27,161 bases of DNA from a virus. Lineage: Duplodnaviria > Heunggongvirae > Uroviricota > Caudoviricetes. Shown here piece after piece: positions 2,081 through 27,161 of this stretch (the first letter of the stretch is position 1; every line of letters begins with the position of its first letter). A program made the translations under genes and the position numbers. The notes under the pieces were generated by a model, which did no database searches, had not been told where the DNA came from, and saw only the letters and a program-made list of their open reading frames with translations. The DNA is taken from IMG/VR virus record IMGVR_UViG_3300017963_000223; one strand, 5' to 3'.

Positions 2081-2277
2081 TGCCTGCTTATGATTTCAAG
2101 TGCGCCTGTGGTGATGTGACCGAGCATCGTGTGCCGTCGACCCAGAAGACAGCCAAGTGCCCGGCGTGTGGCAAACGTGCAAAGCGGCTTCCGCCGTGTC
2201 CGAACGCCATCTGTCGTTACAGTTTATTTGAGCGGAACGCTGGGAATCCGCGAGTGACCCGTGGGAGGGGACGATGA
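2080..2277 (+). CDS. FmdB-family zinc ribbon protein
   Basis: MPAYDFKCACG...CPACG...KRL matches the MP-x-Y-x-(F/Y)-x-C CxxC/CxxC pattern; GGAGAG RBS; alternative start 2077. Confidence 0.8.
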   Translation: MPAYDFKCACGDVTEHRVPSTQKTAKCPACGKRAKRLPPCPNAICRYSLFERNAGNPRVTRGRGR

Positions 2278-3068
2278 ATCGACTCTACAATACCAGAGCC
2301 TATCTCTGTGGTGCCATGGACCGAGTGTCCGATGGTGGTGAAGTGTGGCGTTTTCGTATTCGTGAACGTCTTCCACACTTGGGAATCAACTGGCTCGACC
2401 CGACGAACAAACCAATCGACATTGGAAAGGAAGACAAAGAAAGTCGGGAGATAAGAAACCAAGCGAAGAAGGACGGGGACTATGACTTGGTCGCCACAGA
2501 GATGAAACCAATTCGATGCGTCGATCTTCGCATGGTTGATGTCTGCGACTTTGTTGTCGTTTACATTGACATCTCGACCCACGCTTGCGGAACGTATGAA
2601 GAAGTCTTCTTGGCCAATCGGCAGAAGAAGCCCGTTCTGTGTGTCATTGAGCAGGGCAAGGAGAACACCCCAAACTGGATGCTGGCAGCACTTCCACACG
2701 AGTATTTCTTCTCGTCTTGGGAAGAGTTGTACTGCTATCTGGAGAGGGTGGCCTACGACAAAACGTACAAGGATACCAAAGGCCGCTGGTACTTCTTCAA
2801 CTGGACCGGACAGTGTGAAGACGATTCCAGTTATCGTACCACCTCTGCGTACCACCCCGATCCGAGCCGACGCATCCGCACGTTGGTGAAGTCAATCGGA
2901 TGGGAGTCGTTCTCGTTCCTGCTTACTCTACTGGTGCTCTACTTCACAGTGGGCAGCGTGGAAAGGGCCAGCGTGGCGACAGGAGTCTTGTTTGGCCTCA
3001 AGGTAGGCTTCCTCTACCTGTACGAACGCCTCTGGCACAAAATCCGATGGGGGAAACACGATGCTTAA
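2274..3068 (+). CDS. Nucleoside 2-deoxyribosyltransferase-like domain fused to a C-terminal DUF2061-like membrane domain
   Basis: AYLCGAM, DLRMVDVCDFVVVY and GTYEE (NDT fold). C-terminal RTLVKSIGW...KVGFLYLYERLWHKIRWG is DUF2061-like with two hydrophobic segments. Confidence 0.75.
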   Translation: MNRLYNTRAYLCGAMDRVSDGGEVWRFRIRERLPHLGINWLDPTNKPIDIGKEDKESREIRNQAKKDGDYDLVATEMKPIRCVDLRMVDVCDFVVVYIDISTHACGTYEEVFLANRQKKPVLCVIEQGKENTPNWMLAALPHEYFFSSWEELYCYLERVAYDKTYKDTKGRWYFFNWTGQCEDDSSYRTTSAYHPDPSRRIRTLVKSIGWESFSFLLTLLVLYFTVGSVERASVATGVLFGLKVGFLYLYERLWHKIRWGKHDA

Positions 3069-3591
3069 CGACCTAAGAATAGCGTTGTACTTGTGGCAGG
3101 CGTACACTCACGCCAAGCTGTCCAATGATCGCTCGACTCAAAACGGTGCAATCATTATTGATGAGGCCAGGGAAAGCGCCTCTCCCCTGTCGGTCGGCTG
3201 GAACTCCCTGGTGCCGGGCTGGGGACACAAGGACGAAGCCTACGAGCGGCCCCTGAAGTATAGCTTGACGGAGCACGCTGAGCGGGCGGCCATCTACAAG
3301 GCGGCCCGCAAAGGGGAACGTCTTGAAGGAATGACGATGGTCGCCAACTGGGTTGCGTGCCCCGACTGCGCTCGTGCGATCGTGTGGTCCGGCATCAAGC
3401 GAGTTATCTGCCACAAGCAGTGCATGGACCGCACACCACCTCGGTGGAAGGAGATGGTCGACCTCGGCCTGGAGATTCTCACAGAGAACAGGATGCACCC
3501 CGTTGAAGTGATTCAATGGGACGGAAGCGTCAAGGATGTGACCGGCATGGAAGTGCCTAACCTCAACAGTGGCGAATTCTGGTATCCATAA
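3061..3591 (+). CDS. dCMP/cytidine deaminase-family zinc enzyme
   Basis: TEHAERAAIY (HAE) and ACPDCARAI (CxxC) motifs; N-terminal SNDRSTQNGAII is typical of dCMP deaminases. Confidence 0.9.
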   Translation: MLNDLRIALYLWQAYTHAKLSNDRSTQNGAIIIDEARESASPLSVGWNSLVPGWGHKDEAYERPLKYSLTEHAERAAIYKAARKGERLEGMTMVANWVACPDCARAIVWSGIKRVICHKQCMDRTPPRWKEMVDLGLEILTENRMHPVEVIQWDGSVKDVTGMEVPNLNSGEFWYP

Positions 3592-3601
3592 AGGAGAAAC
3601 C

Positions 3602-4147
3602 ATGCGTCTTATCGAGTATCAGTACCAAGCCGTCCGAACGGCAATCTATCCGCACACCCACAAGCTGATCTACCCAGCCCTCGGCCTGTGTGGTGAGGTG
3701 GGCGAGTTGATTGGTTATGTCAGCGCAGAGCAAGGTCTTCAACTGGCGTTGGTGTTGGACAACATCAAGAAAGAGATAGGGGACGTTCTCTGGTACGCTG
3801 CTAATGTCGCTGAGGACATGGACGTTCTTCTCTGTGAGGTCATGGAAGAAGAGAACTTCCCAGAGTACATGGGGCCTTGGGACGCCAACGAGGTGATCGG
3901 CGAGTTGCCGATTCACGCTGGTGTGGTCGCCGAGAACGTCAAGAAAACTATCAGGGACAGTAACGGAGCCCTGTCCGCCGTCAGGCGTGACAACATTGTG
4001 CTAGCTCTCCGGTGGTTGCTTCGTTGGGCGGCCCGACTCTGCTCCAATTACAATATCACGCTCGAAGAGTGTGCTCAACTCAACTTGGACAAGCTTCGCT
4101 CGCGTGCCGAGCGAGGCGTCTTGAAAGGCGACGGCGACGATCGCTGA
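3602..4147 (+). CDS. mazG: MazG-like nucleotide pyrophosphohydrolase with internal duplication
   Basis: YQYQAVRTAIYP, LGLCGEVGEL, KKEIGDVLWY, then AENVKKTIRD and NLDKLRSRAERGVLKGDGDDR. AAGGAG RBS; start re-assigned to 3602. Confidence 0.88.
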   Translation: MRLIEYQYQAVRTAIYPHTHKLIYPALGLCGEVGELIGYVSAEQGLQLALVLDNIKKEIGDVLWYAANVAEDMDVLLCEVMEEENFPEYMGPWDANEVIGELPIHAGVVAENVKKTIRDSNGALSAVRRDNIVLALRWLLRWAARLCSNYNITLEECAQLNLDKLRSRAERGVLKGDGDDR

Positions 4148-5505: not shown

Positions 5506-5964
5506 TCACGCTACCGACAACCCCAGGGTCTTGTGTCGACCCCGAAATGTATTCAGCAAGTTCACGGACCAAAGCTCCATGATGTTGTTCGCTGGAACCG
5601 GATCGAGAATCAAATCAATCTGCTGTTTGTCAATCGTCAAGTGGCCAATTGAAAAATCACAAGTGAGCCGGAGCAAATCATCAGGATTCTCTTTGCAGAC
5701 GGTCAAGGCCGAGCTACTTGAATCATAGTCGACCGCCAAGAGGACCAAGTCGAACGAGTCGTGCATGACAGCGAGCGAAGTCAAAACAACAAATGCCTCC
5801 TGGTCGGTCAACTCTTCCTTCCACACCCAGATTGCGTCACGCGGAAGCGTAGGCACGCTCGCCAGGAAGATGTCGTACTCATGCTGGCGGATCGGGGCCG
5901 GGAGCATCCCCTGGTGTTGAATCTGCTCCCATGCCTCGTGGGTTGTGTAGTGGTAGCCGATCAT
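5506..5964 (-). CDS. Hypothetical protein, possible ADP-ribosyltransferase-fold (HYT motif)
   Basis: Starts MIGYHYTTHEAWEQIQHQGMLP, then an aromatic strand AIWVW; AAGAGG RBS; ATGA overlap with upstream gene. Confidence 0.55.
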   Translation of the reverse strand: MIGYHYTTHEAWEQIQHQGMLPAPIRQHEYDIFLASVPTLPRDAIWVWKEELTDQEAFVVLTSLAVMHDSFDLVLLAVDYDSSSSALTVCKENPDDLLRLTCDFSIGHLTIDKQQIDLILDPVPANNIMELWSVNLLNTFRGRHKTLGLSVA

Positions 5965-10452: not shown

Positions 10453-11790
10453 TCAAAACTCCGAAGGGTCTCCGATTGATGCGTAGTGGAAGCCAGTGGC
10501 CCGCATGCGGGTTGGGTTCAACAGGTTCCGACCGTCGAAAAGCCAAGCGGGTCGCTCCATGCTGCGCTTGATGGTGTGCCAAGGCAGATCGATGTACTGA
10601 GGCCAGTCAGTTGCAAGGATGACGGCGTGGGCCCCGGTCGCACACTTCAGTGGATCATCAAAATGAGTGAAGCGAGTCCTCTCATACGTCTTCAGTGTAG
10701 CTTTCGGATCAGTGATACGAACGTCCGCACCTTCATCGGCGAGGAGTTCGCAGAGGCGGAGCGCTGGCGACTCGCGGGTGTCTCCGGTGCCAGCCTTGAA
10801 GGCATACCCAAAGACGGCGATTCGCTTGTCCTTGAGGGTGCCGAACAGTCGCTTGCTGAGCCGTCGCACAAGCCGGTCCTGCTGGTGCTCGTTCATCTTG
10901 ATGACGGACTCCCAATAGTCGGCCACCTCGGTCAGTCCCTTGGAGCGTGCGATGTAGACAAGATTTAGCACATCCTTCTTGAAGCATGAACCACCGAAGC
11001 CAAGCGACGCCTGTAGGAAGTGCTGACCGACGCGCGGGTCGGTGCCGACGGCTTTGGACAGTTCGTCAACGTGGGCGTTGGTGTGTTCGCACACCTCGGC
11101 CAGAGAGTTGATCGACGACACACGCTGAGCCAGCATTGCATTGGATGCCAGCTTGGACAACTCGGAAGTCCAGATGTCGGTCAGGATGATGCGGTCGCTG
11201 GGCACCCAGTTGTAGAGTGAAACCAGCTTAGCCATCGCATCAACACCTCGGCCCGAGCCGGTGCTTCCTATCAGAACTCGATGCGGGACCTCCAAGTCGG
11301 CAATCGCTGTGCCCTCGGCCAGGAACTCCGGATTACTCAGTATGGAGAAGGTTTTGTCGTCGGTGTCTTCCAAGACTTCATGGAGCATCTCGTTCGTGCC
11401 GACAGGTACGGTGGTCTTCTCGATGACGACCGTGTGGCCAGAAGCGAACTTGTTGATCTGTCGAGCCACGGCTTCGACCTTACTGGTATCACAAGCATAC
11501 CCGGCCCCGGTGCCTTCCGTCTTGGTCGGGGTGTCCACCGAGATGAAGATGATGTCGGCCTTGCCGATCTCTCCCCGAACGTCCGTCGAGAACGTCAGGT
11601 TATAGCCCCGGCGGTCCTTGACGATCGCATCCAGGTTTGGTTCGTAGATCGGCAACATGTCGGAGTTCCAATCGCAGATTCGTTGGCGGTCGATGTCCAC
11701 AACAACGAAATGATGCTCCAAATTATACTTGGCCATGACAGCCATCGTCGGGCCGCCTACATAGCCAGCGCCAATACACAATACTCTCAT
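10453..11790 (-). CDS. ugd: UDP-glucose 6-dehydrogenase (eukaryote-like subfamily)
   Basis: CIGAGYVGGPT, VIEKTTVPVGT, SNPEFLAEG, SELSKLASNA.LAQRVSSINS, catalytic GFGGSCFKKD, YAFKAGTGDTRESPA, FDGRN. Confidence 0.97.
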   Translation of the reverse strand: MRVLCIGAGYVGGPTMAVMAKYNLEHHFVVVDIDRQRICDWNSDMLPIYEPNLDAIVKDRRGYNLTFSTDVRGEIGKADIIFISVDTPTKTEGTGAGYACDTSKVEAVARQINKFASGHTVVIEKTTVPVGTNEMLHEVLEDTDDKTFSILSNPEFLAEGTAIADLEVPHRVLIGSTGSGRGVDAMAKLVSLYNWVPSDRIILTDIWTSELSKLASNAMLAQRVSSINSLAEVCEHTNAHVDELSKAVGTDPRVGQHFLQASLGFGGSCFKKDVLNLVYIARSKGLTEVADYWESVIKMNEHQQDRLVRRLSKRLFGTLKDKRIAVFGYAFKAGTGDTRESPALRLCELLADEGADVRITDPKATLKTYERTRFTHFDDPLKCATGAHAVILATDWPQYIDLPWHTIKRSMERPAWLFDGRNLLNPTRMRATGFHYASIGDPSEF

Positions 11791-15306: not shown

Positions 15307-15337
15307 GGAACATTTGGAACATTCGGAACATTCGGAA
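15307..15337. repeat. Three tandem 9-bp repeats GGAACATT(T/C) just upstream of P1
   Basis: ggaacattt-ggaacattc-ggaacattc-ggaa. Confidence 0.85.
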
Positions 15338-18040: not shown

Positions 18041-18094
18041 TGTATTGTTCGGCCGACGGGCGGCCGGGAAACCCACCATAGGGAGATTGTAACG

Positions 18095-18937: not shown

Positions 18938-19018
18938 GCGCTTGCGGCCGGGCGCCGGGCGCTTGCGGCCGGGCGCCGGGCGCCGGGCGCTTGCGGCCGG
19001 GTGGCCGGGTGGCCGGGA
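18938..19018 (+). repeat. GC array 1 (GCGCTTGCGGCCGG x3 interspersed with CGCCGGG, then TGGCCGGG x2)
   Basis: Starts at the stop codon and runs into the upstream element of P5. Confidence 0.9.
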
Positions 19019-19038
19019 GAAAATTCCGAGAATTCTAT

Positions 19039-19066
19039 TTGACTTTCGCGTAAGGTGTGGTATGCT
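19039..19066 (+). promoter_or_regulatory. Cassette promoter P5: TTGACT-N16-TATGCT
   Basis: ttgact-ttcgcgtaaggtgtgg-tatgct; one mismatch versus P6 over about 60 bp. Confidence 0.9.
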
Positions 19067-19123
19067 TGTATTGTTCGGCCGACGGGCGGCCGGGAAACAC
19101 CACCACCGCAAAGGGTTCCGATT

Positions 19124-19603
19124 ATGACACAAGACCAAATTGATTCGATTCTGACGGACAAAGGGGTCGCGCTGGACGTGACGTTGGTTCGCGACGACTT
19201 TGACGGTCGCGAGGGTTCGACGACCTGGGCCGTTACAATCACCCGAAACGGCCAATCGTTCCAAACGGAATACACCCAAGGATGCTACCATCGGCACTAT
19301 CGGAGTGGGCGCCCGATCAATCTCCCCTTTGGAGGGGTGACGATTGCAACGGTTGAGAAGAACAAACGGACCCGGCCGAATAAGCCGATTCTGGCGGATG
19401 TGCTGCACGCGCTTGTGTCGGATGCGCAATGTGTAGCGTTTGGGCAGACCTTTGAGGATTTTGCCGGCGCTATGGGTTATGACACTGATTCCCGTGAAGC
19501 GGAACGTGTCTATAATGGCTGCCGGGATGAATACTTCGGGCTGGTCCGGCTGTTCGGGTCCGACGGCCTGGAAGAGTTGTGCGAGTTGTTCCAAGACTAT
19601 TGA
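19124..19603 (+). CDS. Hypothetical phage protein, 159 aa (P.LADVL..LVSDA...TFEDFA..MGYD.DS)
   Basis: AAGGG-TTCCGATT-ATG; start re-assigned from 19055. Confidence 0.8.
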   Translation: MTQDQIDSILTDKGVALDVTLVRDDFDGREGSTTWAVTITRNGQSFQTEYTQGCYHRHYRSGRPINLPFGGVTIATVEKNKRTRPNKPILADVLHALVSDAQCVAFGQTFEDFAGAMGYDTDSREAERVYNGCRDEYFGLVRLFGSDGLEELCELFQDY

Positions 19604-19623
19604 TTCCACCGGAGGTGACGGTT

Positions 19624-20103
19624 ATGTCGACGAAAGTGAACGGCGTGGTTCTATCGGATATAACGGCTCGGTATCTTGAAACGATACTGTGGGCTGAGAC
19701 GGTTCTGATGCCTGTGCCGGACGATGAGCTTGTTGACGGTCGTATGGATGTTGACAAAGATCATCCCTTGCACGGTATTGTCGAGGGTTTCCCTCTTGAC
19801 GAATACTTCGGTCTTGACGACTTTTCCGATGAGTCGCTTGAGAGGGCTGAGAGCGATTGTGCCGAGTTCTTCGATCGTATCGACGATGCCGATCTTCTCG
19901 AACGTGCCAATCGGTTCGCCGATGACGAACATATCGCTTATGACTTCTGGTTGACTCGTCAGGGTCATGGCGCTGGTTTCTGGGATGGCGATTACAAGGA
20001 CGATACCGACAATGTCGGCGACGCGCTTTCTGAGGTTGCTGCGGAGTTTGGCGAATGTTACGTTGTTGTCGGTGAGGGCGGTCAACTGCATATTGAGGGT
20101 TAG
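19624..20103 (+). CDS. Acidic phage protein with DFWLTRxGHGAGFWD motif, 159 aa
   Basis: GGAGGT-GACGGTT-ATG; start re-assigned from 19579. Confidence 0.8.
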   Translation: MSTKVNGVVLSDITARYLETILWAETVLMPVPDDELVDGRMDVDKDHPLHGIVEGFPLDEYFGLDDFSDESLERAESDCAEFFDRIDDADLLERANRFADDEHIAYDFWLTRQGHGAGFWDGDYKDDTDNVGDALSEVAAEFGECYVVVGEGGQLHIEG

Positions 20104-20151
20104 TCCGGTTGTGCGGGCGAACGGAAACAACGAGCAAAAGGAGGTGGGGTT

Positions 20152-20385
20152 ATGATGGTTGCAGCAGTCAAGCAGGTTGTGATGGTCAAGCGGGAATATC
20201 GGGATCGTTTGGATGATCCGCCCCGCACCGATAGTGTCGAGTTTGCCAGTCGGTTCGATGCTATCGATTATGCGACTCAGTTGTATCGGGCGGGTGTTGT
20301 CGAACGTGTTGAATGTATCGATCATACCGGTCGTCCGTTCTTTGCCGCTCGTCGCAATCAATTCGATTTTGCGCTTGCACGATGA
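20152..20385 (+). CDS. Hypothetical protein, 77 aa
   Basis: AAGGAGGT RBS. Confidence 0.72.
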   Translation: MMVAAVKQVVMVKREYRDRLDDPPRTDSVEFASRFDAIDYATQLYRAGVVERVECIDHTGRPFFAARRNQFDFALAR

Positions 20386-20417
20386 CGGCCGACGGGCGGC
20401 CGACGGGCGGCCGGGAG
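20386..20417 (+). repeat. GC array 2: CGGCCGACGGG x2 + CGGCCGGGAG
   Basis: Lies between the stop codon and the P6 upstream element. Confidence 0.9.
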
Positions 20418-20435
20418 AAAATCCCGATTTTCTAT

Positions 20436-20463
20436 TTGACTTTCGCGCAAGGTGTGGTATGCT
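20436..20463 (+). promoter_or_regulatory. Cassette promoter P6: TTGACT-N16-TATGCT
   Basis: ttgact-ttcgcgcaaggtgtgg-tatgct. Confidence 0.9.
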
Positions 20464-20551
20464 TGTATTGTTCGGCCGACGGGCGGCCGGGCGGAACGGT
20501 TGCCACCGGGCGGCCGACAATCCCAACCCCACCACCGAGGGAGTTCCGATT

Positions 20552-21358
20552 ATGAGCGAAATGCAGATGACGCTGGACGGGGCGCTTGTACCAACTGCGC
20601 CACATGTTGACGACATTGTCGTTTGTGTCGATGGTTCCGAGTGTCGGCATGGTGACGCGCTTTTCGATTGTGAGGGCGGCGCACATCGTACCGACGAGGA
20701 TAGGCACGACCGGGATGTACAGGTTGTGTCGGATTTTCTGGATGAGGTCGGAAAGTGGGCTGAGGACTATTGCACCGGCAATTCCGATTATCCCGATGCT
20801 TACAGTTGTCTCATCAATGAGGGTTGTCACGATTGGGACGATGATGTGCGTGAGTGGATTGAGAACGAATACGGCGACGAATGCGGTCACACCAACTTTG
20901 ACGACTATATCGAAGAAATCGTTGAGAAGGTCTGTGAGGAACTTGACGGTGAGTTCGATTGTGAGGCTGAATACAATTCCAACGAGTATGCCGCTTACTC
21001 CGGTTCTGGCTGTTGTTTGGGTTCGTTTGATATTGGCGAACATGAGGAACAGATCGAGATTAACGGTCACGACGTTCTTCGGGTTCTGCACGAACGTGGC
21101 GATCTTGACGATGTGTTGGATGATGTCAATTGTGACGTTTATATCAATCGCGACCGTCGGCGCGAGAAGAACGAAGAGACCGGATATTACGAGCCTGTCG
21201 GTCGTGAGACTTACATGCCTTATGAGCATAATCGCGAACATCCGGATCTTCTCATCTATGTCAACATTTCCGGTCAGTGGCAGTGGGTCGTTCCTGCCGA
21301 TCGCATGGAAGAGTTGGTCTGTGAGGCGCTGTTGGATTATCACGGTTATACCGAATAA
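20552..21358 (+). CDS. Extremely acidic protein, 268 aa (possible DNA mimic or anti-defence protein)
   Basis: GAGGGAG-TTCCGATT-ATG; hand count 72 D/E versus 17 K/R. Confidence 0.8.
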   Translation: MSEMQMTLDGALVPTAPHVDDIVVCVDGSECRHGDALFDCEGGAHRTDEDRHDRDVQVVSDFLDEVGKWAEDYCTGNSDYPDAYSCLINEGCHDWDDDVREWIENEYGDECGHTNFDDYIEEIVEKVCEELDGEFDCEAEYNSNEYAAYSGSGCCLGSFDIGEHEEQIEINGHDVLRVLHERGDLDDVLDDVNCDVYINRDRRREKNEETGYYEPVGRETYMPYEHNREHPDLLIYVNISGQWQWVVPADRMEELVCEALLDYHGYTE

Positions 21359-21376
21359 TACCTTGTGGTGGGGTAT

Positions 21377-21468
21377 CGGGCGGCCGGGCGCTTTGCGCCC
21401 GGTCGCCTAGTCTATTGTCGGCCGGGCGGCCGACGGGCGGCCGACGGGCGGCCGGGAGCGGCCGGGAG
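21377..21468 (+). repeat. GC array 3, preceded by hairpin CGGCCGGGCG-CTTTG-CGCCCGGTCG (21381-21405)
   Basis: Words CGGCCGGG, CGGCCGACGGG x2, CGGCCGGGAG x2 before P7. Confidence 0.88.
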
Positions 21469-21486
21469 AAAATCCGAGAATTCTAT

Positions 21487-21514
21487 TTGACTTCCGGGAA
21501 TGCGCGGATATACT
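21487..21514 (+). promoter_or_regulatory. Cassette promoter P7: TTGACT-N16-TATACT
   Basis: gagaaaatccgagaattctat-ttgact-tccgggaatgcgcgga-tatact-tgaatagtcggccgacgggcggccg. Confidence 0.9.
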
Positions 21515-21572
21515 TGAATAGTCGGCCGACGGGCGGCCGGGCGCAACACCCCACCACCACAAGGGTACAATC

Positions 21573-21890
21573 ATGGCGAAAATGACGATTGGTCCGAAAC
21601 ATCCGATCCGGGCGCTTGTGCAAGGTCTGCCGACCTATGCCGATTCTAAGGGTCGATTCGTTGAGTTGGTCTGTAAGGCCTTTGACGATTGTGACCTCGA
21701 TGTCGTTTGTTCCGATATGGACGGCGATGAGGGTCGCGTCAATTGGGCGATTCGTCCCAAAGATAACACTCGTGTCTGTTGTGACGAATGTGCGGCTCGC
21801 ATGGATGCTGCCAGTTATGACAACTGGATGGTTATTACGTGGTATCGGCTTTCTGCCCATACTATCGAATTTGTCGCTTATGTCAGCTAG
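21573..21890 (+). CDS. Hypothetical protein, 105 aa (CCDEC)
   Basis: AAGGG RBS after an A/C-rich leader. Confidence 0.75.
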   Translation: MAKMTIGPKHPIRALVQGLPTYADSKGRFVELVCKAFDDCDLDVVCSDMDGDEGRVNWAIRPKDNTRVCCDECAARMDAASYDNWMVITWYRLSAHTIEFVAYVS

Positions 21891-21906
21891 GCAAGGAGTA
21901 TCAACT

Positions 21907-22314
21907 ATGTCGAAAATTCAACTGAATCGGATTGTGAAGCCTGTGACGGTCGTGAGTAATGATGGCGCTCGTATCGAACAGCGCACTGAGTCCGTTGGTG
22001 TCAGTTTTGCCGGTCCTGACGGTCGTACCGTTTCGCTCGCCTTTGACGGTCGATGCGATTGTAAGGCTGATGCCCCTGGGATGATTCGTGAGACCTACGC
22101 GCCTTATGCCGATTGTGCCGTTATTGACGGCGAATACCGGCAAAGTGGACCTATGCCGGATATTCAGGTTATGCGCTTTCTGCGGGATGCGCTGATTGAC
22201 CTGGACCTGGGGGATTATGACCCTCGTAGGGTCTGTATCGTTTGTGGCGGTGAGTTCGAGCCTGCGAGTCCTGGGTGCTGTAACGTCTGTGCCGATTGTG
22301 AGGATAGCGACTGA
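21907..22314 (+). CDS. Hypothetical protein with C-terminal zinc finger (CIVC...CCNVC), 135 aa
   Basis: AAGGAG RBS; start re-assigned from 21589. Confidence 0.75.
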   Translation: MSKIQLNRIVKPVTVVSNDGARIEQRTESVGVSFAGPDGRTVSLAFDGRCDCKADAPGMIRETYAPYADCAVIDGEYRQSGPMPDIQVMRFLRDALIDLDLGDYDPRRVCIVCGGEFEPASPGCCNVCADCEDSD

Positions 22315-22317
22315 TTG

Positions 22318-22518
22318 CGGCCGGGCGGCCGGGCGGCCGGGCGGCCGGGCGGCCGGGCGGCCGGGCGGCCGGGCGGCCGGGCGGCCGGGCGGCCGGGCGG
22401 CCGGGCGGCCGGGAGCGGCCGGGAGCGGCCGGGAGCGGCCGGGAGCGGCCGACGGGCGGCCGACGGGCGGCCGGGAGCGGGCCCAGCAAGCCGGGAGCGG
22501 CCGACGGGCGGCCGGGAG
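22318..22518 (+). repeat. GC array 4: (CGGCCGGG)x11, (CGGCCGGGAG)x4, (CGGCCGACGGG)x2, then mixed words including a 20-mer; G-quadruplex-capable
   Basis: Parsed directly; the GGG-N5-GGG-N5-GGG-N5-GGG pattern recurs. Confidence 0.95.
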
Positions 22519-22536
22519 AAAATCCGAGAATTCTAT

Positions 22537-22564
22537 TTGACTTCCGGGAATGCGCGGGTATACT
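22537..22564 (+). promoter_or_regulatory. Cassette promoter P8: TTGACT-N16-TATACT
   Basis: ttgact-tccgggaatgcgcggg-tatact; 61 bp identical to P12. Confidence 0.9.
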
Positions 22565-22620
22565 TGAATAGTCGGCCGACGGGCGGCCGAAACACCACAT
22601 CACATAGGGGGGTTCCGATT

Positions 22621-23061
22621 ATGACGACCATGCCGACTTATTCCGATGTGACGCTTGACGCGATGACTGCCGATTGTAACGAATGGGAGAATGCTGTCGT
22701 TCGTGCGGCCTTTACCACTCGTGGCGTTCGTGACGGCGGTAAGCTTCGTGCCAATAAACCGTTTCGCACGGTTCACAACAAGTGGGAGGGTTGTGCCAAT
22801 TACGTGTGGCGTATGCTTTGTTTCGATCTTGTCGGATCGGGGAAGCATGCCTGTATGCCGGTCTGTGCCGACTTTGACCTTCACGACGCCGTTAGGGAAG
22901 ATGCGGGTTATGCCGATATTACCGATCGTCACGACCGGTATCAGGTTGTGCGGGATTTGACGGCTGACATGGATGCCCTGGTCAAGCGGGTCGAATCGGC
23001 TTTGCCGATCACAGAGCAGAAAGGGATTCTGCGGTGGGGACGGGCTTTGGGGATGGTGTGA
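22621..23061 (+). CDS. Hypothetical protein, 146 aa (cassette 8 gene a)
   Basis: AGGGGG-TTCCGATT-ATG; start re-assigned from 22315. Confidence 0.78.
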   Translation: MTTMPTYSDVTLDAMTADCNEWENAVVRAAFTTRGVRDGGKLRANKPFRTVHNKWEGCANYVWRMLCFDLVGSGKHACMPVCADFDLHDAVREDAGYADITDRHDRYQVVRDLTADMDALVKRVESALPITEQKGILRWGRALGMV

Positions 23062-23075
23062 GTTGTGACGATTGT

Positions 23076-23099
23076 GCGGGCGGCCGGGCGGTCGCCCGC
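23076..23099 (+). other. GC-rich 10-bp hairpin between two genes, built from the array word
   Basis: GCGGGCGGCC-GGGC-GGTCGCCCGC (one G.U), preceded by CGATTGT. Confidence 0.75.
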
Positions 23100-23119
23100 T
23101 ATAACCGGGAGAATCCGCA

Positions 23120-23347
23120 ATGAAGATGCGACCCGACGATTACGAACGACTGACAGAATCGATACAGTCGTTACTGAAGCGACAACCGGAAGTATCGGTA
23201 GAAACCTACCTTGGGCAGGGTATGACGGCTGAGCGGTTTAGGTGGGATGCGCTACATGCTTCCGGATTTGACACTCGTGCGCTTTATGACTATCTTGACG
23301 ATGATCACATCGATACCGCGCTTCGCCGGATAACCGGTACAAACTGA
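23120..23347 (+). CDS. Hypothetical phage protein, 75 aa (RFRWD...LYDYLDDDHIDTALR)
   Basis: GGGAGA RBS; the pattern resembles a widespread small phage family (from recall). Confidence 0.78.
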   Translation: MKMRPDDYERLTESIQSLLKRQPEVSVETYLGQGMTAERFRWDALHASGFDTRALYDYLDDDHIDTALRRITGTN

Positions 23348-23408
23348 CCGGGCGGCCGGGAGCGGGCGGCCGGGAGCGGGCGGCCGGGAGCGGGCGGCCG
23401 GGCGGGAG
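23348..23408 (+). repeat. GC array 5: (CGGCCGGGAGCGGG)x3 plus flanking words
   Basis: Between the stop codon and the P9 upstream element. Confidence 0.9.
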
Positions 23409-23426
23409 AAAATCCGAGAATTCTAT

Positions 23427-23454
23427 TTGACAATCGCGATAGGCGCGGTATAGT
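23427..23454 (+). promoter_or_regulatory. Cassette promoter P9: TTGACA-N16-TATAGT
   Basis: ttgaca-atcgcgataggcgcgg-tatagt. Confidence 0.9.
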
Positions 23455-23514
23455 TGAATAGTCGGCCGACGGGCGGCCGGAAAACACCCCACCACCGATT
23501 ATGAGGATTTTACC

Positions 23515-24078
23515 ATGAGTAGCGAACGTAGCAAAGGTGTCGTGCTTGTCGGTCGTAAGGGCGATGAGTATTATTTCGTTGATTCCGTCTTTCGGCATGA
23601 TGACCGTCTTGCGGGTTGTACCGGAACGGTCGTCTGTCCGGTGTCGACCGAATATGCCGATCATCTACTTTCTGCCGATCAAGTGGAAGATCGGTGGTTT
23701 GACTCTTGGCGCGAATATGCCTTTCGGTGTATTGAGTCCGATTGTAGGAATTGTCGGAATGGCGTCGATGAGGAGGGTTGTGAGGATTGTGGCTATCAGT
23801 CGCTTCGTGAGTTTGGCGCCGAGATTGCCAACGGTGACGGTATTGACGCCATGATCGATCGCACCGATCAAGAGTATGTTGACGCCTTGAACGAACATGC
23901 TGATCTTGACGATGAGGCCAAGTATGCCGATTGTATCGGCTGTGGCAGAATCTTCGGTCGTCTGGGTCTTGACGATTTTGACGAAGTGTACAATCGCAAG
24001 GCGCTTGTCGCTATTCTCGCTTATGAGGATGGCGCAACTGATTACGATTATACCCGTCGTGTGGTCTATGGCGATTAG
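23515..24078 (+). CDS. Acidic Cys-rich protein, 187 aa (CRNC...CEDC, CIGCGRIF)
   Basis: GAGG RBS; overlapped by a 5-codon upstream ORF (23501-23518). Confidence 0.8.
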   Translation: MSSERSKGVVLVGRKGDEYYFVDSVFRHDDRLAGCTGTVVCPVSTEYADHLLSADQVEDRWFDSWREYAFRCIESDCRNCRNGVDEEGCEDCGYQSLREFGAEIANGDGIDAMIDRTDQEYVDALNEHADLDDEAKYADCIGCGRIFGRLGLDDFDEVYNRKALVAILAYEDGATDYDYTRRVVYGD

Positions 24079-24086
24079 TCCGATTG

Positions 24087-24151
24087 CGCGGGCGGCCGGG
24101 CGAGTGGAGCGGGAGCGGGAGCGGGAGCGGGAGCGGGCGGCCGGGCGGGAG
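24087..24151 (+). repeat. GC array 6: includes (CGGGAG)x4
   Basis: Begins after TAGTCCGATTG; ends at the P10 upstream element. Confidence 0.9.
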
Positions 24152-24169
24152 AAAATCCGAGAATTCTAT

Positions 24170-24198
24170 TTGACAATCGCGATAGGCGCGGCTATACT
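24170..24198 (+). promoter_or_regulatory. Cassette promoter P10: TTGACA-N17-TATACT
   Basis: ttgaca-atcgcgataggcgcggc-tatact (P9 spacer plus one C). Confidence 0.9.
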
Positions 24199-24249
24199 TG
24201 AATAGTCGGCCGACGGGCGGCCGGGCGCAACACCACAAGGAGTCCGATT

Positions 24250-25536
24250 ATGACGATTGCAACAGATGACACGGTCGTGACACTGGCAACGGTCAGTGTG
24301 TTTGAGCGGGGTTTGTCGGCTTTGCGGGTCAAGGTGGCAAAGCTGAATAAGCGGGCGGCGCGCTATGGGATGGTGCCGCTGGAATTGAGGATTCTGTCGG
24401 CCGAACCGACCACACGGGATTTGCGGGTTGGCGGGGAAGTGCGGGAAGTGCCGGATGTGCTGACCACAGTCGAGATTGCGGGTTGTGAGCCCTGTATCAA
24501 TGGTTACAGAATTATCGCCAAGGTCGAATTTAACGATCTTGTCGGTAATGTCGTTCGTGTCGCTCCTGGCAATGATGACGATGGTAGCTTTGAGCAGTAT
24601 CGCACCATTGGTCCGGTCTGTGAGCATTGCAACAGTCGTCGGCGTCGTAACGATGTTTACGTCCTTGCGGGTCCTGACGGTTCTCGCAAAATTGTCGGTC
24701 GCAACTGTCTTGCCGATTATGTCAGGGATGGCGATGCTGCGGCGCTTGCGGCCTGGGCCGAATTTGCCGATCAGTTGCGTGATGCGACCTGTGACGGTGA
24801 TCCGGAAGATGACGATTGGCGGGAGTATACCGGTGATCGCGGTAATCCGAATATGCACCTCGGAGCGTATTTGCGGGTTGTGGCGCTTGTGAAGCGTAGG
24901 TTCGGTTGGATGGGTCGCACGGCCGCTAGGGATTCGTTCGATGGTATCGCTACTGCCGATGATGCCGCTCGTTTCATCTATGGGCGTGGTAGGGCGCATG
25001 ACGCTTGGGTGAGTAAGAACGAATTGTATATCTGTGAGGATGATGGCGATTATGCCGATCGTGCCATCGCATGGGCGGCCGGGTTGGATTCTGCCGGCAA
25101 GTCCGAATATATCGATGTGATCAGCAAAATCGCTCGTGCCGGATATGTCGATATGCGGAAGCTTGACGGCTATGCGGCTTCGATCCTTATTGCCTATGAT
25201 AAGGCCTGTGAGCGTGAGATCGAACGTAAGGAACGTGAGGCTGGCGCCAAGAATAAGGTCTGGTACGGTGAGGAGAAAAAGAGGGAACGTAGCGTCCGTG
25301 TCAAATGTGTCGGTCTTAACAGTTTTGAGGGTCAGTACGGTGTCACCACATTGGTGAGATTTGAGCATTATCCGAATGACACGGATGTGGCCGTTCTTGT
25401 CTGGTTTGCCAGTGGTGACAAGTATAACGATTGGGACCTTGAAGAGGAATATGTCGTTGACTTCACTTGTAAGGGTCACGACGATCACGACAAATATGGC
25501 AAACAGACCAAGATCAACCGGGTGAAGCAAGTGTAA
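24250..25536 (+). CDS. Hypothetical phage protein, 428 aa: CEHC...VGRNC zinc module and probable C-terminal OB-fold
   Basis: AAGGAG-TCCGATT-ATG; C-terminal FEGQYGVTTLVRF...VWFASG...KGHDDHDKYGKQTKINRVK. Confidence 0.8.
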   Translation: MTIATDDTVVTLATVSVFERGLSALRVKVAKLNKRAARYGMVPLELRILSAEPTTRDLRVGGEVREVPDVLTTVEIAGCEPCINGYRIIAKVEFNDLVGNVVRVAPGNDDDGSFEQYRTIGPVCEHCNSRRRRNDVYVLAGPDGSRKIVGRNCLADYVRDGDAAALAAWAEFADQLRDATCDGDPEDDDWREYTGDRGNPNMHLGAYLRVVALVKRRFGWMGRTAARDSFDGIATADDAARFIYGRGRAHDAWVSKNELYICEDDGDYADRAIAWAAGLDSAGKSEYIDVISKIARAGYVDMRKLDGYAASILIAYDKACEREIERKEREAGAKNKVWYGEEKKRERSVRVKCVGLNSFEGQYGVTTLVRFEHYPNDTDVAVLVWFASGDKYNDWDLEEEYVVDFTCKGHDDHDKYGKQTKINRVKQV

Positions 25537-25544
25537 CGATTGTG

Positions 25545-25706
25545 CGGGCGGCCGGGCGGGTGGAGCGGCCGACGGGCGGCCGGGCGGGTCCAGGTGGCGG
25601 CCGGGCGGGTCCAGGTGGCGGCCGGGCGGGTCCAGGTGGCCGGGCGGCCGGGCGGGCGGCCGGGCGGGCGGCCGGGCGGGTGGAGCGGCCGACGGGCGGC
25701 CGGGAG
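25545..25706 (+). repeat. GC array 7: includes (CGGCCGGGCGGGTCCAGGTGG)x3, flanked by CGGGTGGAG-CGGCCGACGGG-CGGCCGGG blocks
   Basis: Begins after TAACGATTGTG; ends at the P11 upstream element. Confidence 0.92.
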
Positions 25707-25724
25707 AAAATCCGAGAATTCTAT

Positions 25725-25752
25725 TTGACTTCCGGGAATGCGCGGGTATACT
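25725..25752 (+). promoter_or_regulatory. Cassette promoter P11: TTGACT-N16-TATACT (no 5' hairpin)
   Basis: ttgact-tccgggaatgcgcggg-tatact-tgaattgt. Confidence 0.9.
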
Positions 25753-25789
25753 TGAATTGTAAGGGGAAAACACCACAAGGGGAAACGCC

Positions 25790-25933
25790 ATGCCGGGACG
25801 AATAAACAAACGCCACGCCATAACGCATTGCCGGGAGCTATTCCGCATCGGCGGCTTGCGTCTGATTGTAGCGGTTATGCTGGCCAAGCCGGGTACTCCG
25901 TTCCTAACGATTTTCACGACTGTATGCAGATGA
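25790..25933 (+). CDS. Small basic/hydrophobic protein, 47 aa (MPGRINKRHAI...; not in the ORF track)
   Basis: First ATG after P11, with AAGGGG RBS and CACCAC leader. Confidence 0.55.
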   Translation: MPGRINKRHAITHCRELFRIGGLRLIVAVMLAKPGTPFLTIFTTVCR

Positions 25934-25944
25934 GGGGTTGTGCC

Positions 25945-26178
25945 ATGTGTGATGATTATGTCGATGATTCACCTCTTGACTTTTGTCCGGCCTGTGGCTA
26001 TGATCACGATTGTCCGGTCTGTACCGGTGAGTTCGATTCTCACAAAGAACTCGATCGTGCCGAAGATGACCTTCTTGCCGATTTGATCGAGTGTCCGGTC
26101 TGTGGCTATGATGCCGACTGTGCCGATTGTATCGGTGAGGCCGATCCTATCGATCTTGTCGACTTGCTTGACGGGTAG
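25945..26178 (+). CDS. Acidic protein, 77 aa, with duplicated CPxCGYDxDCxxCxGE zinc motif
   Basis: GAGGGG RBS; 9 Cys, 24 D/E, 2 K/R; start re-assigned from 25828. Confidence 0.75.
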   Translation: MCDDYVDDSPLDFCPACGYDHDCPVCTGEFDSHKELDRAEDDLLADLIECPVCGYDADCADCIGEADPIDLVDLLDG

Positions 26179-26303
26179 CCGGGAGCGGCCGGGAGCGGGC
26201 CCAGCAAGCCGGGAGCGGCCGGGAGCGGCCGACGGGCGGCCGGGCGGCCGGGCGGGTGGAGCGGGCCCAGCAAGCCGGGAGCGGCCGACGGGCGGCCGGG
26301 GAG
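26179..26303 (+). repeat. GC array 8: mixed words including two 20-mers CGGGCCCAGCAAGCCGGGAG
   Basis: From the stop codon to the P12 upstream element. Confidence 0.92.
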
Positions 26304-26321
26304 AAAATCCGAGAATTCTAT

Positions 26322-26349
26322 TTGACTTCCGGGAATGCGCGGGTATACT
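26322..26349 (+). promoter_or_regulatory. Cassette promoter P12: TTGACT-N16-TATACT (5' hairpin truncated)
   Basis: ttgact-tccgggaatgcgcggg-tatact-tgaatagtcggc. Confidence 0.9.
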
Positions 26350-26389
26350 TGAATAGTCGGCAACACTCACCACCACAAGGGGACCGATT

Positions 26390-26521
26390 ATGTGGATTAC
26401 GCGAATTCTGAGAGCTTTGCGGAACGTGACGGATGCAACGGTCAGTGAGGATGTCCGGATGAAACGGTTGATCCGGAAAAGCATGCAACGACGGTCGTAT
26501 CGACCGTGCGGATCGTATTGA
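26390..26521 (+). CDS. Small Arg-rich protein, 43 aa (MWITRILRALRN...; not in the ORF track)
   Basis: AAGGGG-ACCGATT-ATG, the shared cassette start context. Confidence 0.65.
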   Translation: MWITRILRALRNVTDATVSEDVRMKRLIRKSMQRRSYRPCGSY

Positions 26522-26576
26522 CCAGAGGGCGGCCGGTCGGACGACCGGGACAACCATCACAACCAGGAGAATCAAC

Positions 26577-26750
26577 ATGACCACGATGATCGACACAAGC
26601 GGCAATGAGCATGAAATCGCCAGACCCGACAACGTCCAAACATTCCGATCGATCGGATGGACCGTCAAAGGCGCCACAGACCTGCGAGACCAGACAACCC
26701 GCAAAATCCCTGTGACCGAGCACGACTGGGATTATCTGTTCCGTGAGTAG
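26577..26750 (+). CDS. Small protein, 57 aa (MTTMIDTSGNEHEIARPD...; not in the ORF track)
   Basis: CAGGAG RBS after an A/C-rich leader; open to TAG 26748-26750. Confidence 0.65.
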   Translation: MTTMIDTSGNEHEIARPDNVQTFRSIGWTVKGATDLRDQTTRKIPVTEHDWDYLFRE

Positions 26751-26832
26751 AATCGAACCAACCTGCGCAATCCCGTCAGGGGAGCCGAGGTTCGGCTTGT
26801 GCCGATCACCCCGACAATTCCGATTGTGCCGA

Positions 26833-26860
26833 AAAGGGCCCCTGTAGGGGTCCTTTCTTA
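26833..26860 (+). terminator. Intrinsic terminator-like hairpin
   Basis: AAAGGGCCCC-TGTA-GGGGTCCTTT followed by CTTA; A-run on the 5' side suggests it may be bidirectional. Confidence 0.7.
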
Positions 26861-26906
26861 TGCGCCGATGGCGCCGAAAATGCCGATTAGGCTGCGCCGT
26901 AAAATG

Positions 26907-27161
26907 CCGGGCGGGTGGAGCGGGCCCAGCAAGCCGGGAGCGGCCGGGCGGGTGGAGCGGGCCCAGCAAGCCGGGAGCGGCCGACGGGCGGCCGGGCCCA
27001 GCAAGCCGGGAGCGGCCGACGGGCGGGCCCAGCAAGCCGGGAGCGGCCGACGGGCGGGCGGGCGGCCGGGAGCGGGCCCAGCAAGCCGGGAGCGGCCGAC
27101 GGGCGGCCGGGAGCGGGCCCAGCAAGCCGGGAGCGGCCGACGGGCGGCCGGGCGGGTGGAG
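26907..27161 (+). repeat. GC array 9 (at least 255 bp, truncated by the window end) with six CCCAGCAAG-containing words
   Basis: Words CGGGTGGAG, CGGGCCCAGCAAGCCGGGAG, CGGCCGACGGG, CGGCCGGG(AG) in varying order. Confidence 0.93.

Follow-up and report, generated by a model that had tools for sequence, protein, structure and literature searches.

The IMG/VR virus record IMGVR_UViG_3300017963_000223, a stretch of 27,161 nt that we refer to as the window, carries nine GC-rich tandem arrays between positions 18938 and 27161, in the spacers that separate small early-gene cassettes from one another. Our tentative interpretation, held with slightly less than even confidence, is that these arrays are minisatellite-like spacers derived from GC hairpin words at cassette borders resembling the promoter-early stem-loop (PeSL) of T4-type phages, that they have been remodelled by slippage and unequal exchange, and that they supply identities of 43–76 bp for recombination between cassettes. 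Any direct effect on gene expression is probably secondary. What is new is the use of lineage-specific repeat vocabularies within a border layout shared among metagenomic relatives, together with the proliferation of a PeSL-like stem-loop word into arrays. The arrays had been picked out in a sequence-only reading of the window, and all nine are present where it placed them. The slot that it described for them, between a stop codon or terminator and the next promoter, is correct for eight, which lie before promoters P5–P12; the ninth is cut by the window end and its downstream promoter is not visible. For comparison we assembled relatives by means of a 428-aa marker protein, comprising 80 metagenome loci, 43 viral loci and 3 loci from metagenome-assembled genomes, and individual relatives are given below by their L numbers; the set does not include P0001, a 96%-identical relative on an 11-kb contig.

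The borders at which the arrays lie have a regular anatomy. From 15.3 kb onwards there are twelve near-consensus sigma-70-type promoters on the + strand, each followed by one to three small genes, and these promoters match 9–11 of 12 consensus positions with 16–17-bp spacing. Three sub-families (P4–P6; P7, P8, P11 and P12; P9 and P10) are near-identical within each. The order of elements at a border is one or more hairpin words, an A-tract with a short palindrome, the −35 and −10 hexamers, a hairpin word, a CA-rich leader and the ribosome-binding site (RBS). Each of P5–P12 has the A-tract and short palindromic element ahead of it, and the eight arrays stop 18–34 bp short of the −35 hexamers. 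The second hairpin word is 17 nt long with two CGGCCG arms and a 5-nt loop, and it begins 2–4 nt past the likely transcript start of P4–P10. It consists of the word pair C plus the start of A or B in the vocabulary described below, which is the same pair that closes many arrays; the terminal C-B pair forms a 6–7-bp GC hairpin that in several arrays lies about 20 bp ahead of the −35 hexamer. Exact identities between different borders of the window extend up to 43–76 bp.

An AT-rich palindrome of the type AGAATTCT / GGAATTCC is located between the A-tract and the −35 hexamer at every clade promoter, centred near −42 to −45. It is found in the window at 19024–19037, 21472–21485 and 22522–22535 with equivalents before P9–P12, and in relatives L003 (1–40), L005 (36–55), L012, L015 and L017. 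A shared activator or repressor could bind there, or the palindrome could belong to an UP element.

The arrays range from 36 to at least 257 bp, in keeping with the earlier estimate of about 30 to over 255 bp, and their composition is as had been described, G-rich (52–67%) and nearly free of T (0–11 per array). Their units are direct repeats, all on one strand, drawn from a vocabulary of at least seven words of 6–20 nt in irregular order and spacing with no helical phasing. We parsed the arrays greedily with the seven words A–G of the sequence-only reading plus an added 4-nt remnant, CGGG. Seven arrays are tiled to 89–98% in this way and the array at 24083–24153 to 76%, whereas the first array reaches only 56% and is built from other words. 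Three arrays end exactly in C-B and one in C-B-B ahead of the A-tract, much as had been reported for several, and no GC array is present upstream of P1–P4. The suggestion that the arrays grow along the region fared less well, with a weak trend only (Spearman rho 0.62, p 0.08). The hexamer CGGCCG occurs 98 times compared with 12.9 expected from shuffles, and none of 100 shuffles gave as high a count. A role in restriction-site avoidance or as a decoy (CGGCCG, GGCC or CCGG) is weakened, as relatives have non-palindromic words and CGGCCG is not avoided outside the arrays.

Three smaller observations concern the same spacers. Coding capacity was considered for the arrays and rejected; their open frames are a by-product of GC richness, and units of 6, 8, 10, 11, 13 and 20 nt break the frame. 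Just ahead of the array, after many stop codons, a stretch of approximately 10 nt is similar to the conserved RBS-to-start spacer of the cassette genes, with GTG or GCG at the start position (23063–23075, 24079–24090, 25537–25548 and 20104–20118 in the window; also in L007, L010 and L012), and this resemblance could be left over from downstream genes since lost or from a recombination junction. Directly upstream of P1 there is a small repeat of a 9-bp word containing GGAAC (3.4 copies, 15307–15337); the same word is also positioned upstream of promoters in L007 (~5545–5575) and L009 (~840–870), and the repeat resembles a −35 element of the extracytoplasmic function (ECF) type.

Table 1. Positions of arrays, promoters, hairpin words, terminators and GCGCTTG sites in the window.
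Feature	Position	Strand	Remarks
Array 1	18938-19019	+	Before P5; other words, including 3 copies of the 7-mer GCGCTTG
Array 2	20384-20419	+	Before P6; word order C-C-B
Array 3	21415-21470	+	Before P7; A-C-C-B-B
Array 4	22315-22520	+	Before P8; A x11, B x4, C-C-B-D-C-B; begins directly after stop codon
Array 5	23347-23411	+	Before P9; 14-bp unit, 3.9 copies
Array 6	24083-24153	+	Before P10; 6-bp unit G, ~5 copies; with array 9 locally the most prone to G-quadruplexes
Array 7	25538-25707	+	Before P11; words A, E, C, F
Array 8	26177-26303	+	Before P12; words B, D, C, A, E
Array 9	26905-27161	+	Words D, C, B, E, A; truncated at contig end
Promoters P1-P4	15344-18040	+	Same family as P5-P12, without upstream GC arrays
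Promoters P5-P12, −35 starts	19039, 20436, 21487, 22537, 23427, 24170, 25725, 26322	+	Sigma-70-type; region 19039-26349
17-nt hairpin word	18050-18066, 19076-19092, 20473-20489, 21523-21539, 22573-22589, 23463-23479, 24207-24223	+	At P4-P10
Terminator-like hairpin, weak T-tract	21378-21408	+	Between stop codon at 21358 and array 3
Canonical hairpin and T-tract terminator	26836-26860	+	~49 bp ahead of array 9
GCGCTTG sites	1588, 10343, 10564, 16979, 18938, 18959, 18987, 19409, 20371, 20582, 21612, 24001, 24742, 24883	+

Relatives with 38–77% identity in the 428-aa protein have arrays at the same position, and the words differ for each lineage. The layout common to them is a stop codon, an array, an A-tract, a sigma-70 promoter, a leader and an RBS. 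GC-rich and G-skewed arrays like those of the window are found in L003, L005, L007, L010, L012, L013 and part of L026; other relatives have words without any G-run (L011, L009, L006, L017), arrays whose gene strand is rich in C (L014, L019, L035 and part of L026), or words incapable of self-pairing (L011, L006 and L016 among them). Unit lengths and sequences vary widely, and the arrays are up to about 400 bp long in L013. The GC content is at least 0.65 in 24 of 29 of these arrays, and 22 of 29 have an excess of G on the gene strand. GC arrays are absent from L004 and L008, the former having short runs of GCGCTTG-type words and the latter small arrays of other words. Repeats also occur within the 5′ leader in L007 and in L021, where a 4-bp unit is present in about 25 copies. 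CA-rich tandem repeats are seen in the 5′ leaders of L021 (1667–1765), L009 (925–953), L015, L016 and L019, and they indicate that repeat formation touches all of the non-coding DNA of a cassette and not just the upstream spacers.

Within a genome the arrays resemble each other closely, and between genomes they scarcely do so. Measured as 9-mer containment, the similarity of two arrays has a median of 0.72 inside one genome and 0.00 across genomes, and sharing falls with protein divergence (0.44 for the window and L005, 0.35 for the window and L003, 0.46 for L007 and L010). Promoters of unrelated genes are identical within each of L005, L015 and L020, yet unlike the orthologous border in other genomes. 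We found no paralogues among cassette genes at different borders, and the flanking genes are unrelated. As judged from these comparisons, border sequences and words are homogenised within genomes and different between them, which is a pattern of concerted evolution. The order of cassette genes is altered in L005, L007, L008, L013, L016, L021, L029 and L084, always with the genes co-oriented. Closely related genomes give a view of change over shorter times. L012, L034 and L037, which come from different samples, are 100% identical through their arrays, and L026 and L028, which are 99.7–99.9% identical, differ in one array with a 7-bp unit by exactly one 126-bp block that is bounded by a punctuation word, the remaining arrays being the same. 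The same two relatives also differ by a 1.48-kb indel (L026 15228–16704, L028 ~5061), which removes two or three small genes, along with the opening codons of the gene that follows, and has its ends away from arrays and promoters. These comparisons show arrays that are mutable by gain or loss of blocks but are not wildly unstable. The variable part is distal to the fixed junction of array and A-tract, which weakens the idea that slippage in the arrays tunes expression as a rheostat. The earlier proposal that the borders are prone to recombination is supported by the reordered cassettes, the homogenisation within genomes and the 126-bp block difference, but not in the switch-like mechanism, involving G-quadruplexes (G4s) and R-loops, that had been attached to it.

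We propose that each border is a composite regulatory unit of a self-contained early-gene cassette, of the same kind as PeSL. Replication slippage and unequal exchange would have increased the number and the variety of self-pairing GC hairpin words, with growth of the arrays confined to the sole unconstrained DNA, that between the stop codon and the promoter A-tract. Gene conversion would keep the words alike across the borders of one genome, each border would come to share tens to hundreds of base pairs with the others, and the borders would serve as preferred crossovers for the loss, gain and reordering of cassettes, every cassette retaining its own promoter. The slippage origin, the gene conversion and the recombination within arrays are steps that we infer from these patterns. 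Recombination in T4-type phages needs less than 50 bp (PMC2839356).

Several observations weigh against this proposal. The promoters already supply homology for recombination, and the arrays may add little to it. No crossover junction was mapped inside any array of the window or of the relatives compared, and the cassette-scale 1.48-kb indel between L026 and L028 is not bounded by arrays. Many lineages retain as much as about 400 bp of non-coding sequence at each border; deletion would be the expected fate of a neutral by-product, and the persistence suggests selection for something else. Neither the GC richness (24/29) nor the excess of G on the gene strand (22/29) is required by the model. 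Furthermore, the close relatives L004 and L008, like P1–P4, lack GC arrays, showing that these are dispensable for cassette function.

Another explanation is misassembly, with arrays mis-joined or invented by the assembler; the sequence-only reading had itself allowed for assembly artefacts. The data are from a short-read metagenome, and contig ends are enriched in arrays, with 12 of 56 ends of relatives located inside them although they make up 6.4% of bases (p 2e-4). However, independent samples yield the arrays without a single base changed (all of those in L012, L034 and L037, and most arrays of L026 and L028), and the arrays occupy a constant anatomical slot with clean stop-codon and promoter junctions, such that we practically dismiss this explanation. 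Copy numbers, which derive from short-read metagenome assembly, are nevertheless uncertain because contig ends concentrate in arrays, and array lengths are minimum estimates; the same concentration accounts for the fragmentary assemblies of these genomes.

Most arrays directly follow a stop codon, and a canonical terminator is lacking ahead of seven of the nine arrays in the window and 34 of 41 overall. An alternative explanation is that the arrays act at the RNA level as insulators, that is, as transcribed 3′ tails whose GC pairing stops or slows polymerase, provides RNase III-type sites or protects 3′ ends, in the way that the 5′ hairpin would shield the following transcript. The window arrays are predicted to fold very stably (−0.37 to −0.73 kcal/mol per nt), the GC hairpin is present at the 5′ ends of the P4–P10 transcripts as well, and PeSL stem-loops have been found by experiment to be effective terminators (PMC2839356). 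This stability is, however, not above that of dinucleotide shuffles (z −2.5 to +2.1), and RNA structure beyond compositional expectation was rejected, with z about 0. Folding z-scores of the arrays in relatives span −5.8 to +2.2. The arrays run into the A-tract with no U-tract following, as would be needed for intrinsic termination, and the words of L011, L006 and L016 are not self-pairing. The remaining seven of the 41 arrays lie behind a hairpin and T-tract terminator, where little RNA is expected, and the location of real terminators ahead of arrays counts against a purely RNA-level role. Across 72 promoter borders of the clade the presence of an array and that of a terminator are unrelated, and 47 borders have neither. 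We accordingly reject the arrays as substitutes for terminators, since with no association they are neither required for termination nor a replacement for it, and we regard the RNA-level explanation as a whole as unlikely.

The arrays could instead be collections of double-stranded DNA binding sites at which a protein of the phage or its host (gyrase, a regulator, or a protein of nucleoid or partition type, for instance) controls or insulates the promoters. Words flank the promoters on both sides, with the array upstream and the hairpin word at about +3, there is a fixed junction with the A-tract, and lineage-specific vocabularies would fit a co-evolving pair of protein and site. There is also a precedent in the repetitive extragenic palindromic (REP) sequences and bacterial interspersed mosaic elements (BIMEs), mosaics of which bind gyrase and IHF. 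We nonetheless consider such a role distinctly unlikely. No single site of fixed length and regular spacing is present, as it is in stoperators, iterons or parC-type sites; the seven or more words with their irregular spacing do not suggest one, and unit lengths and sequences differ widely among relatives. P1–P4 have the same promoter without arrays, and no DNA-binding domain was detected in the cassette proteins and neighbouring proteins tested.

The mechanism favoured by the sequence-only reading was that transcription through a G-rich non-template strand promotes G4s and R-loops and hence breaks and switch-like recombination. Canonical G3-N1-7 motifs are present in six of the nine arrays, 25-nt segments with G4Hunter scores of at least 1.2 in five, and a G4 is included in the predicted minimum-energy RNA fold of three; the GC skew of the arrays is 0.24–0.48. 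But the array-wide G4Hunter means are modest (0.67–1.18), as interspersed C permits a competing duplex, and the G skew is not above that of the flanking coding sequence, which has a GC skew of +0.12 to +0.3 across 16.5–26.5 kb. Among 29 arrays from relatives, a canonical motif is present in just five, scores mostly stay below 0.8, and in four the gene strand is rich in C. Moreover, two window arrays are located behind terminators, and lengths of 36–257 bp compare with kilobases for switch regions. We conclude that G4 and hairpin potential are not conserved, whereas position and repetitiveness are, usually with high GC. The G4 and R-loop mechanism is thus not supported as the defining property of the arrays, and we find it highly improbable as their explanation.

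A different DNA-level possibility arises from the strand asymmetry of the words, in particular of the 7-mer GCGCTTG, which occurs in the window 14 times on the + strand and not once on the − strand. It serves as an array word in four lineages (array 1 of the window, L004, L009 and L026). With arrays masked, it is the most strand-skewed 7-mer in the early regions of the window and ten relatives (82 to 10), and in those of the window and seven relatives it is the most over-represented on the top strand, with 75 copies compared with 9–20 expected under Markov orders 1–3 (rank 1–2 of 15,449). It is present in all three reading frames and in non-coding DNA, and codon usage predicts 13.7 occurrences of the codon pair that spells it, compared with 49 observed. 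A complete 129-kb relative has 20 of its 23 copies on one strand and all of them in the first 47 kb. Data on GCGCTTG also come from L004, L007, L008, L012, L013, L026 and the record G002. Similarly, all 33 copies of the AddAB-type pentamer AGCGG in the window arrays are on the top strand, with none on the bottom strand, and L007 and L013 show a similar one-sidedness.

The Chi sequences known to date are short words, rich in G and particular to a species, and GCGCTTG could be a Chi-like signal or a polar signal linked to transcription. More broadly, the arrays and GCGCTTG might be strand-specific DNA signals multiplied in tandem, for example host-specific Chi-like or anti-nuclease sites that tame RecBCD or AddAB at the ends of phage DNA. 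This is consistent with the location of the G-rich words all on one strand and with the greater frequency of arrays towards the contig end, and terminally clustered, co-oriented Chi sites are documented in phages (PMC12315714). On the other hand, copies within one array do not count as independent, an array rich in G will always look like one known Chi or another, and in four lineages arrays have a C-rich gene strand. The contig end, moreover, probably marks a break in the assembly and not the end of a genome. Because the early genes all point the same way, the polarity of GCGCTTG coincides with, and is confounded by, the direction of transcription, and most window arrays do not contain GCGCTTG. 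We therefore find strand-specific signalling of this kind quite improbable, although the polar 7-mer and the one-sided words leave room for a function at the DNA level. If it were correct, the private vocabularies would track the host machinery, and the arrays would be a readable record of host specificity in uncultured phages.

The genomic setting is in part recognisable. The first 15.1 kb of the window contain genes for nucleotide metabolism and possible DNA modification, including a phosphoesterase, and segments at 664–1476, 2274–3068, 3061–3591, 3569–4147 and 10453–11790 make up a cluster of N6/N4 methylase, deoxyribosyltransferase-like, dCMP deaminase, MazG and UDP-glucose dehydrogenase genes. 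DNA modification, if present, would bear on the exposure of CGGCCG, GGCC and CCGG sites to restriction. The cassette proteins match only PHROGs of unknown function and no Pfam family at an informative score, and a Pfam scan of 30 open reading frames (ORFs), part of the window's ORF set, revealed no transposase domain. There is no near-identical phage in the GenBank phage collection and no exact match to the borders or arrays in IMG/VR, and a search of 15–27 kb against Rfam (E up to 0.1) and a tRNA scan gave no matches. We found no description in the literature of GC-rich intergenic tandem repeats at phage early promoters. The 428-aa marker protein is encoded at 24250–25536 and has many metagenomic homologues, mainly on contigs of 1.3–4 kb; in several long contigs the homologues lie 0.4–2.2 kb from the contig end. 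It corresponds to phrog_2319, of unknown function, with an invariant Cys-x-His-Cys and an Arg-rich motif near residue 124. GenBank labels of its phage homologues are inconsistent (RecT-like, DNA-binding), and a profile search against PDB sequences gave noise only.

If the arrays are indeed slippage-remodelled recombination spacers, they would extend the principle of the mobile regulatory cassette to borders that consist of a genome-specific repeat vocabulary with fast turnover in uncultured sediment phages. Such spacers would be relevant to the shuffling of accessory early genes in phages. They would also explain the fragmentation of such genomes into metagenome contigs of 1–4 kb, which is a practical warning for viromics, and the vocabulary could be used as a natural barcode for tracking lineages.

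Among known systems, immunoglobulin switch regions share with the arrays a G-rich non-template strand composed of short degenerate repeats downstream of promoters. They are ten- to hundred-fold longer, extending over kilobases, and the arrays have modest G4 scores that are not conserved and no known deaminase-type targeting. The early or host-takeover regions of large lytic phages (SPO1, T5) have, as here, dense strong host-type promoters, each with one to three small genes of unknown function; to our knowledge, modular GC-rich arrays at each border have not been described in them. The REP and BIME families of enterobacteria and pseudomonads are more similar in form, being GC-rich, hairpin-forming, transcribed extragenic units that follow stop codons and have both a grammar and a genome-specific vocabulary. 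BIMEs, however, are alternating imperfect palindromes of 20–40 bp spread by RAYT transposases, whereas the units of the arrays are much shorter, repeat directly on a single strand and occur in just one region of the phage, and the scanned ORFs include no transposase domain. The Chi clusters of the lambdoid phages LLS and MD8 (PMC12315714) are also short G-rich words, nearly one-stranded and regionally concentrated, but they are single dispersed octamers, mostly intragenic and of known host specificity, while the words here are tandem and intergenic.

The closest described system is that of the PeSL cassettes of T4-type phages, in which repeated strong sigma-70 promoters are associated with a GC stem-loop in plastic, ORFan-rich regions (Arbiol et al. 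2010, PMC2839356; Comeau et al. 2014, PMC4122927). Recombination at PeSL deletes, inserts and circularises genes, and the motifs vary by phage lineage (PMC2839356, PMC4122927). The window has a repeated promoter, a GC stem-loop joined to it and a plastic region of small ORFans whose order is shuffled in eight relatives. As in PeSL cassettes, near-identical sigma-70-type early promoters are coupled to the stem-loop between co-oriented small ORFans, motifs are lineage-specific, and gene content and order vary among relatives at the borders. Differences from PeSL are that a second copy of the hairpin is located at the 5′ end of the transcript and that the phage is not demonstrated to be a T4 relative. 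Finally, PeSL has a single stem-loop, whereas at the borders described here the word recurs many times over, in modular arrays that measure from 36 to more than 250 bp and combine several word types.

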